DNA of 64,000 bases from Escherichia phage vB_EcoM_G8: sequence record NC_054915.1; one strand, written 5' to 3'. Each line of letters begins with the position of its first letter. The stretch's first letter is position 1. Below are positions 46,996 through 48,539 of the stretch, piece by piece. Below the pieces are notes generated by a model that was not told where the DNA came from, searched no databases, and was given only the letters and a program-made list of their open reading frames with translations. A program made the position numbers and the translations under genes.

Positions 46996-47544
46996 ACCCA
47001 AGAAAACATCTACTGATCGTTGATACCACTGCAAATCCAAATAACCATTACGCACATTAAACTGATAGAACATATGACAGGGCGGTAATGCCATTTGATT
47101 GATTTCAGCTGGATTCCATGCTGAAACGATTTGACGTCGATCAGTTGGTAATTTTTTAATACGATCAATAGTTTCAACTAATTGATCCACACCACCGAAA
47201 TCACGCCATTGTTTACCGTATATAGGACCAAGTTCACCACTATGATATCCTAGGTCTTTAGCCTGGTTTTCATAGTTATCGTCCCAAATAGTTTTACCTT
47301 GAATAAGACTACCATGAGTGCGAAGACGTAAATCATTAACATTGGTAGAACCGGAAATAAACCATAAAAGCTCAGCAACGCATGCATTCCAGGCGAGCTT
47401 CTTAGTTGTTACTGCAGGAAAACCTTTGGTTAAATCCCAACGCAATTTAGTACCGAACAGAGCAATTGTTCCTGTGCCCGTTCGGTCATCGGTTTCATAG
47501 CCATTTTCAAAAATGTCTTTAATTAAATCTTGGTATTGTTTCAT
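46996..47544 (-). CDS. td: thymidylate synthase, exon 1
   Basis: MKQYQDLIKDIFENGYETDDRTGTGT…QWYQRSVDVFLG; in-frame stop follows inside intron. Confidence 0.9.
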
Positions 47545-47589
47545 TTAGTACCTTATATAAATTATAATACATTTTATGAAGCTAAATAA

Positions 47590-47937
47590 TCAATACGGTT
47601 TAGCATCAAATTTTCTCTCAATTTCAGGCGTGAAATATAATTCTTTACCGCGTTTGGAAAAGCGACCAATAATATGATAATTATTCTCATCAAACGTGAT
47701 ATTACCAATATCCATAGCTTTCAACCAAATATCGATATTTCTATCCAGCTTTATGTCAAAATTCCAATACGGAGAACTATTACCGAAAATACTGCAAGCG
47801 GATTCAGTGAAACAACTGCTATAAATCTTGTCTTTAGGAACTACTAATTGATAGACACCTTTAATAAACTGAGGACCCTGCCACTTTGGCTGTTTCGCGT
47901 CTTTTTCTAATAAAATAGGGTAATAATTAAAATTCAT
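47590..47937 (-). CDS. hypothetical protein in frd-td insertion cassette
   Basis: ATG 47937 gives 115 aa MNFNYYPILLEKDAKQPKWQGPQFIKG…; no recognisable motif. Confidence 0.6.
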   Translation of the reverse strand: MNFNYYPILLEKDAKQPKWQGPQFIKGVYQLVVPKDKIYSSCFTESACSIFGNSSPYWNFDIKLDRNIDIWLKAMDIGNITFDENNYHIIGRFSKRGKELYFTPEIERKFDAKPY

Positions 47938-47957
47938 ATTTTCCGCCACGCGTTATT

Positions 47958-48539
47958 TCATTTATATACTGATTCCGTAAGGGTTGTTACTTCATCTATT
48001 TTATACCAATGCGTTTCAACCATTTCACGCTTGCTTATATCATCAAGAAAACTTGCATCTAATTGAACCGTTGAATTAACACGATGCCTTTTAACGATGC
48101 GAGAAACAACTACTTCATCTGCATAAGGTAATGCAGCATATAACAGAGCAGGTCCGCCAATTACACTTACTTTAGAATTCTGATCAAGCATAGCCTCGAA
48201 TGGTGCATTAGGACTTGACACTTGAATTTCGCCGCCAGAAATGTAAGTTATATATTGCTCCCAAGTAATATAGAAATGTGCTAAATCGCCGTCTTTAGTT
48301 ACAGGATAATCACGCGCAAGGTCACACACTACAATATGACTACGACCAGGGAGTAATGTAGATAATGACTGGAACGTTTTAGCACCCATAATCATAATTG
48401 TACCTTCGGTACGAGCTTTAAAATTCTGGAGGTCCTTTTTAACTCGCCCCCATGGTAAACCATCACCTAAACCGAATGCTAATTCATTAAAGCCTTCGAC
48501 CGTTTTAGTTGGAGAATAAGCGAATATCAATTTAATCAT
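47958..48539 (-). CDS. frd: dihydrofolate reductase
   Basis: 193 aa [41 protein letters not shown]…. Confidence 0.92.

Follow-up and report, generated by a model that had tools for sequence, protein, structure and literature searches.

The overlap of frd and td in bacteriophage T4 was reportedly first described by Purohit and Mathews in 1984, and T4 deletions between short direct repeats are said to have been reported by Singer and Westlye in 1988. In the T4 reference genome (NC_000866) the two genes share 4 nt, confirming the direct frd-TGA/td-ATG overlap that the original prediction for the present locus had described. PeSL and PmSL cassettes carry a composite early or middle promoter and a stem-loop on both sides of an ORF (PMC2839356, PMC4122927). 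Passages of PMC2839356 cite Singer et al. 1982 and Mosig et al. 1998 for T4 deletions between short direct repeats. The window, i.e. the whole 64,000-nt stretch of DNA analysed here, carries a 115-codon gene, hereafter gene a, between frd and td. We consider it probable that gene a is a genuine, vertically inherited accessory gene in an old variable frd-td slot of the Tevenvirinae, and that the T4 junction is a clean deletion. The features of the locus, in window positions, are as follows.

46127..46864, minus strand: I-TevI homing endonuclease gene in the td group I intron (245 aa, MKSGIYQIKN...).
46993..47544, minus strand: td exon 1, 183 codons; the stop in the ORF list is that of the intron.
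47539..47547, minus strand: right copy of TAAATGAAA, comprising three non-coding bases plus td ATG-AAA; right indel edge.
47545..47589, minus strand: spacer between gene a and td, 45 nt, ending TATAAGGTACTAA ahead of the td ATG.
47554..47583, minus strand: extra segment of allele B, about 30 nt, absent in B' alleles; promoter-like signals.
47590..47937, minus strand: gene a, 115 aa from ATG; phrog_1928.
47938..47957, minus strand: frd-to-ORF spacer, 20 nt, AATAACGCGTGGCGGAAAAT, with a weak SD-like GGCGG.
47956..47964, minus strand: left copy of TAAATGAAA, comprising the last Tyr base, the Lys codon, the frd TGA and two non-coding bases.
47958..48539, minus strand: frd (dihydrofolate reductase), 193 aa, ending ...ESVYK-TGA; from the ORF list and annotated matches.

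On the minus strand the last bases of frd, up to 47958, are ...GTATATAAATGA, and td starts AAATGAAACAATACC (ATG at 47544). The 3' 424 nt of frd are 97.5% identical to T4 frd; td has an AAGG SD to itself and is uncoupled from frd. An alternative GTG start at 47949 would extend the product of gene a to 119 aa. I-TevI is annotated at the same position in T4, and td exon 2 lies beyond the intron in the window. An 80-aa ORF with a GTG start (48536..48778, minus strand) was also found upstream, its TGA overlapping the frd ATG. It is missing in T4, which has a 71-nt non-coding gap in its place, and is unannotated in the T2 record AY310907; syntenic homologs lie directly upstream of frd in Melville (52% identity), the metagenomic relative L013 (35%) and ZX14 (29%). 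T4 is reduced on both flanks of frd.

A direct repeat at the ends of frd and td had been proposed as an 8-mer. Its coordinates proved exact, but the repeat is a 9-mer, TAAATGAAA, present in two exact copies 417 bp apart. Removing one copy plus 409 bp was expected to recreate the T4 arrangement, and the T4 junction GGAATCAGTATATAAATGAAACAATACCAAG does equal the window minus these bases, base for base. The junctions of HY03 and Mosigvirus HY126 likewise match the exact excision product of the window sequence, and in alignments with all three the left copy marks the left indel edge. The repeat boundaries are conserved, as the original prediction required, but they consist of a generic gene-junction motif. 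With 3.65 copies of the 9-mer expected in the window, nine were counted (0/100 shuffles reached nine), because the motif is a typical T-even boundary made of a stop codon, an ATG and a Lys codon. Copies at 36442 and 33447 also lie at gene stop/start junctions, and the window holds 16 ATGA junctions with frames of at least 60 codons on either side. Coding fixes seven of the nine bases in the left copy (frd Y-K-stop) and six of nine in the right (td M-K), leaving five of the 18 that match although non-coding. TAAATGAAA is a generic stop/start junction motif, neither a specialised recombination site nor an obvious insertion scar or transposon footprint.

We estimated the frequency of each junction allele from BLAST summaries, which are not a full census: gene a alone fills the slot in about 70% of Tequatrovirus records, an unrelated gene c alone in about 25%, and the empty, T4-type junction is found in a few percent. 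The T4 junction is the rarest of the three Tequatrovirus alleles (a, c and empty). Gene a occurs in about 360 of about 510 Tequatrovirus records, an ORF-containing query was covered by 353 of 535 megablast records, and protein a was found at at least 90% identity in 361 phage records, including T2, RB14, RB32, RB3, RB18 and RB68; T6 also has the gene. The expectation that T4 reference genomes lack the ORF was borne out for T4 itself, whereas most T4-type genomes carry it. An identical protein is present on 341 contigs and named hypothetical in all of them, and gene a is already deposited as a hypothetical protein in hundreds of genomes. Literature searches with locus names, accession and PHROG id found no paper on the ORF or on frd/td polymorphism, and the main text of a PST/T4 comparison paper is without frd or td.

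When the T4 junction was used as query, 60 evenly spaced rows of the result showed single-piece, T4-type matches only as the top four, while about two thirds carried the 115-aa gene and about a fifth a 206-bp insert. This insert is gene c, which encodes 68 aa, is unrelated to gene a and has ATGA and TAATG overlaps at its two ends. Its presence at the same junction in about 135 other records (at least 95% identity) bears out the claim that the slot is modular. The gene c product (68-69 aa) is basic, with a pI of 10.3, and belongs to phrog_9550; Pfam gave no match, nor any backing for the 'DUF4858' label that gene c carries in phage Shinka. Gene c lies at 451-657 in record L008, 1651-1857 in L010 and 4670-4879 in L013; outside the T4-like phages, a version with 43% identity occurs in phAPEC8-like phages.

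In the genus Mosigvirus the empty junction is in the majority and phage SF is a rare carrier of gene a. A frd-a-td query from SF reached at least 80% coverage in just four records, SF included, and HY126, NicPhage, LF82-3 and the other Mosigvirus relatives listed have the empty, T4-like form. In SF (L016) the frd TGA directly overlaps the ATG of gene a and the 20-nt spacer is absent. DNA identity between SF and the window is 89% for gene a and only 64% for frd, and dS is lower for gene a (0.67) than for td (1.12) or frd (1.83), which fits some lateral transfer. Phages F2 (L015, 94-711) and Phaginator (L011, 1-487) have two additional A ahead of the frd stop (TATAAAAATGA). The resulting frame shift adds 12 codons to the annotated frd (...VYKNEIATGGKYEF), which then shares 11 nt with gene a; its new tail, GGKYEF, is similar to the GEKREF with which frd ends in the metagenomic relative L014.

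Homologs of gene a at 30-46% identity were found right after frd in four other genera, represented by Mosugukvirus PM2, Kanagawavirus ZX14, Jiaodavirus JIPh_Kp122 and Gelderlandvirus Melville, and in all four they overlap the frd stop codon. In three of the four a second gene, b, comes next. It is a distant tandem paralog of gene a, sharing the motif Q..W ... GRFxKxGxE(I/L)xF, and gene a, the b paralog and the Klebsiella homolog all match phrog_1928. A more distant member adjoins td in Yersinia phage MHG19. The two metagenomic relatives carry gene a at 63-66% identity, in the order frd-a-b-td in L014 and frd-a-b-c-td in L013. Gene c of L013 shares 81% identity with the 68-aa gene found at this position in Shinka-type Tequatroviruses, and ATGA overlaps lie at frd/a, b/c and c/td. 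When compared within the same genomes, gene a (31-46% identity) and Frd (42-49%) have diverged to a similar degree, as vertical descent predicts. A family HMM run against all six frames of the window found no paralog of gene a. Across Tequatrovirus and Mosigvirus alleles, dN/dS of gene a is 0.03-0.05, which indicates that the gene is real and under selection.

Both spacers hold sequence that resembles parts of this array. In the frd frame, the frd-a spacer reads K-stop-NNAWRKI-stop, its second TGA overlapping the ATG of gene a. The 3' part of this spacer, TGGCGGAAAATATGA, is similar to the tail of frd in L013, TGGTGAAAAGCGATGA, where frd overlaps the homolog through ATGA. The a-td spacer opens with the first codons of a b-type frame, MLNRIDY..., begun within the coding sequence of gene a. 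In the B' alleles (SF and Phaginator) this spacer is 15 nt, reads in frame as MLNRIDY-IGVK-stop and has its TGA overlapping the td ATG; its TAGGTGxTAA resembles the 3' ends of gene b in ZX14 (TTAGGTGCAGA) and L013 (CCAGGTGAAGA). The a-td spacer of the B' alleles is probably what is left of a deleted gene b, and the frd-a spacer probably a remnant of a longer frd tail. These similarities span only 10-15 nt and all point, tentatively, to reduction of a larger coupled array.

The extra segment of allele B lends the a-td spacer of the window its promoter-like signals. These include TTGATT (47588-47593), N18 and TATTAT (47564-47569), scoring 9/12 in a sigma-70 scan, as well as the TATAAT that had been predicted ahead of td and lies at 47561-47566 of the 45-nt spacer. 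A further element, TTAGCTTCA (47577-47585) followed by N12 and TAATTT (47559-47564), resembles a MotA box. The TGCTT used for this reading is quoted in PMC4122927. A promoter is annotated at the matching place in phage Lutter, and we regard the signals as a putative promoter. Neither spacer contains a stem-loop (folding relative to shuffled sequence, z = -0.08 and +0.74) or, on direct reading, an inverted repeat, and an Rfam scan of 45400..48800 gave no match. At E<=1 Rfam also reports no group I intron in this interval despite the td intron, presumably because the 738-nt I-TevI ORF splits the match to the intron model.

Given that the ORF-bearing allele is the majority in Tequatrovirus, that homologs fill the same slot elsewhere and that a remnant of gene b appears to persist, T4 is most likely a deletion derivative. 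We infer both the direction of the event and its mechanism, which would draw on microhomology at the gene junctions. The fullest known form of the slot, frd-a-b-c-td with its genes joined by ATGA stop/start overlaps, would have given rise to Tequatroviruses as reduced versions with a only, c only or nothing. As every boundary of the array would present ATGA(A) in one register, deletion or recombination between two junctions could remove whole genes cleanly and keep a working stop/start overlap, as at the T4 junction. In a phage bearing gene a, repeat-mediated deletion would yield the product TATATAAATGAAACAATACC. Alleles could then pass between lineages during co-infection, by homologous recombination within the conserved flanking frd and td sequence. 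Against deletion, the empty Mosigvirus majority requires either gain of gene a in SF or repeated independent loss, the lower dS of gene a between the window and SF fits some lateral transfer, and the five matching non-coding repeat bases are what a target duplication would give.

In the main rival reading the T4-like empty junction is ancestral. Illegitimate or microhomology-mediated recombination would have brought in a cassette, made up of the ORF with an SD of its own and a promoter downstream, and duplicated the target TAAATGAAA. In its favour, the 9-nt direct repeat includes five non-coding bases, the 20-nt frd-a spacer could be a donor frd tail carried in with the cassette, and Mosigvirus junctions are as a rule empty, SF being a rare carrier whose gene a is far closer to the window than its frd. 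That a different gene, c, can occupy the same junction also suits this reading. It must nonetheless accommodate same-slot homologs with Frd-like divergence in two metagenomic relatives and no fewer than four further genera, an ORF-bearing majority allele that is itself diverse within Tequatrovirus (dS of gene a up to 0.78), and an a-td spacer that resembles a decayed gene b and so hints at descent from an a-b array. No transposase, terminal inverted repeats or flanking PeSL pair accompanies the ORF, and the repeat motif is generic at gene junctions. We therefore hold insertion to be unlikely; the original prediction, which had the ORF entering a T4-like junction, probably reversed the direction of the event.

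Recombination in the flanks bears on how the alleles are now distributed. Flank trees showed that junction alleles are not aligned with flank haplotypes but shuffled relative to both frd and td. T4 frd is closest to that of a c-bearing phage and to that of the window, whereas the window td is only 82% identical to T4 td. Recombination clearly moves junction alleles between lineages, and some carriers may have regained gene a through homologous exchange. Two deeply diverged td haplotypes were observed in Tequatrovirus, about 82% identical over the first 430 nt (47115..47544, minus strand; compared with L001, L007, L008 and L010). One is shared by the window, AdolfPortmann, Lutter and Phaginator, and the other by T4, HY03, T2, Shinka and YUEEL01. 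Over roughly the first 150 nt of td the haplotypes are about 93% identical, and the junction-proximal part of td seems to have been homogenised by recombination.

It could be that the junction allele is mainly a passenger of I-TevI homing, in which intronless td is cut about 550 bp downstream, repair co-converts the frd/td junction and the state of gene a tracks the history of the td intron. Co-conversion of flanks is documented for T-even homing (PMC2988022), and the window has the td intron with I-TevI together with a homing signature in exon 1. Nucleotides 1-500 of this exon match the intronless AdolfPortmann td at every position (100%), whereas the final 50 nt turn T4-like (48/50 identical to T4 against 40/50 to AdolfPortmann). 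This switch has the appearance of a short 5' co-conversion tract of the kind that I-TevI-mediated intron homing leaves. However, the tract is shorter than about 100 nt and ends about 450 nt short of the frd/td junction, and intron state and junction allele are found in all combinations, namely a with the intron (window), a without it (T2 AY310907, AdolfPortmann, SF), empty with it (T4) and c with it (YUEEL01). We consider this explanation improbable.

Still harder to credit is the idea that the ORF is a free-standing homing endonuclease that cuts empty frd/td junctions and copies itself in. Presence or absence between conserved genes with precise empty sites is indeed the seg/mob pattern (PMC2988022), and the protein is labelled 'putative homing endonuclease' in the BASEL phages AdolfPortmann, FriedrichMiescher and WilhelmHis. 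Searches of Pfam, NCBIfam and PHROGs nevertheless found no GIY-YIG, HNH, LAGLIDADG or other nuclease domain, the invariant residues (W19, G91, K95 and G97) include no conserved His/Asp/Glu set, and 115 aa would leave little room for a nuclease and a DNA-binding module together. Strong purifying selection, synteny across genera and a tandem paralog would also be unusual for a selfish gene. A transposon or IS with target-site duplication was rejected because the only ORF has no recombinase similarity and the repeat is mostly coding and a common motif, and a PeSL/PmSL cassette because the promoter-like signals lie downstream only and neither spacer folds better than shuffled sequence.

The ORF matches phrog_1928 (PHROGs v4, unknown function) with E=9.5e-36, residues 8-115 aligning to profile positions 2-125 of 126. 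In a 62-sequence alignment, the four invariant positions named above are joined by near-invariant L9, G27, Y29, F93 and F102, and no catalytic signature was seen among the conserved residues. AlphaFold run with this alignment gave a model of strands and one helix (pLDDT 93.4, pTM 0.86), and the family has a median pI of 8.6. A profile search of 1.84 billion proteins recovered only about 50 cluster representatives, nearly all of 95-148 aa. Scans of the ORF and 62 family members with Pfam, NCBIfam and PADLOC returned nothing, PDB sequence and profile searches gave chance-level matches only, and no relative was detected among solved structures; the description of the ORF as a 115-aa accessory gene with no recognisable motif agrees with these results. 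BFVD matches were confined to uncharacterised proteins of T4-like phages. Some matches to gene a carry the label 'glucose-1-phosphate adenylyltransferase', for which Pfam gives no support. No PADLOC-DB model matched either; this library covers host defence systems and lacks phage counter-defence proteins, and counter-defence therefore stays compatible with the null match.

We favour a binding, non-enzymatic role for protein a, linked to the pre-replicative frd-td module or to interactions specific to the host; it would be made along with Frd and Td before replication while being dispensable in some hosts. Translational coupling says little about function, being common to most early T-even genes. 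As to its role, an accessory partner of the nucleotide-synthesis or replication module is a tentative suggestion and a host-specific counter-defence or takeover factor a more doubtful one; that it does something else is somewhat easier to believe than either. A broader reading would make a and b a T4-group-specific family with a fold absent among solved structures, acting as stoichiometric, non-catalytic partners of folate/thymidylate enzymes or in host-specific counter-defence, with the ATGA(A) overlaps as built-in microhomology sites for gene excision or exchange without breaking coupling. Taken together this is rather unlikely; if true, such sites would account for the a-only, c-only and empty alleles seen here.

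Presence/absence polymorphism of a small accessory gene at frd/td is in itself ordinary. The T4 reference is most likely the reduced exception at this locus, and reasoning from T4 only would therefore probably get the direction of the event wrong. Although dispensable, gene a is well conserved and under strong selection, and hundreds of therapeutic-candidate phages, along with T2 and T6, carry it at the centre of their nucleotide-metabolism cluster. As T4 and most Mosigviruses are natural knock-outs of gene a, its function is easily testable. The natural series from a-b-c through a-b, a with a probable b remnant, and c to empty offers a clean view of small-gene loss with operon expression intact.

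Among known systems, the T4 frd/td overlap has the same flanking genes and junction bases as the window, which adds the 115-codon gene and a spacer on each side of it, one of 20 nt upstream and one of 45 nt, with promoter-like signals, downstream. PM2 gp191/gp192, ZX14 orf00010/orf00009, Melville 236/235 and JIPh_Kp122_0236 share family (phrog_1928), slot, length class and motif with gene a of the window; they differ in being 30-46% identical, in overlapping the frd stop and in usually forming an a+b pair, whereas the window has a only, plus acquired spacers. The free-standing seg/mob homing endonuclease genes (PMC2988022) are, like gene a, intergenic and patchy among close relatives with precise empty sites, but gene a has no nuclease domain or catalytic residues and shows purifying selection, deep synteny and a tandem paralog. 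The PeSL/PmSL ORFan cassettes of T4-type hyperplastic regions are likewise small genes of unknown function that come and go as units, next to a promoter-like element. Gene a, in contrast, has such an element on one side and no stem-loop, lies in a conserved nucleotide-metabolism cluster and has its indel edges in a stop/start motif rather than in promoter repeats. Finally, the T4 deletions between short repeats resemble the route proposed here, in which one 9-bp repeat and the intervening DNA would be lost; the difference is that the repeats at frd/td are functional stop/start signals, and that the event, as reconstructed from sequence comparison, would have kept the overlap.
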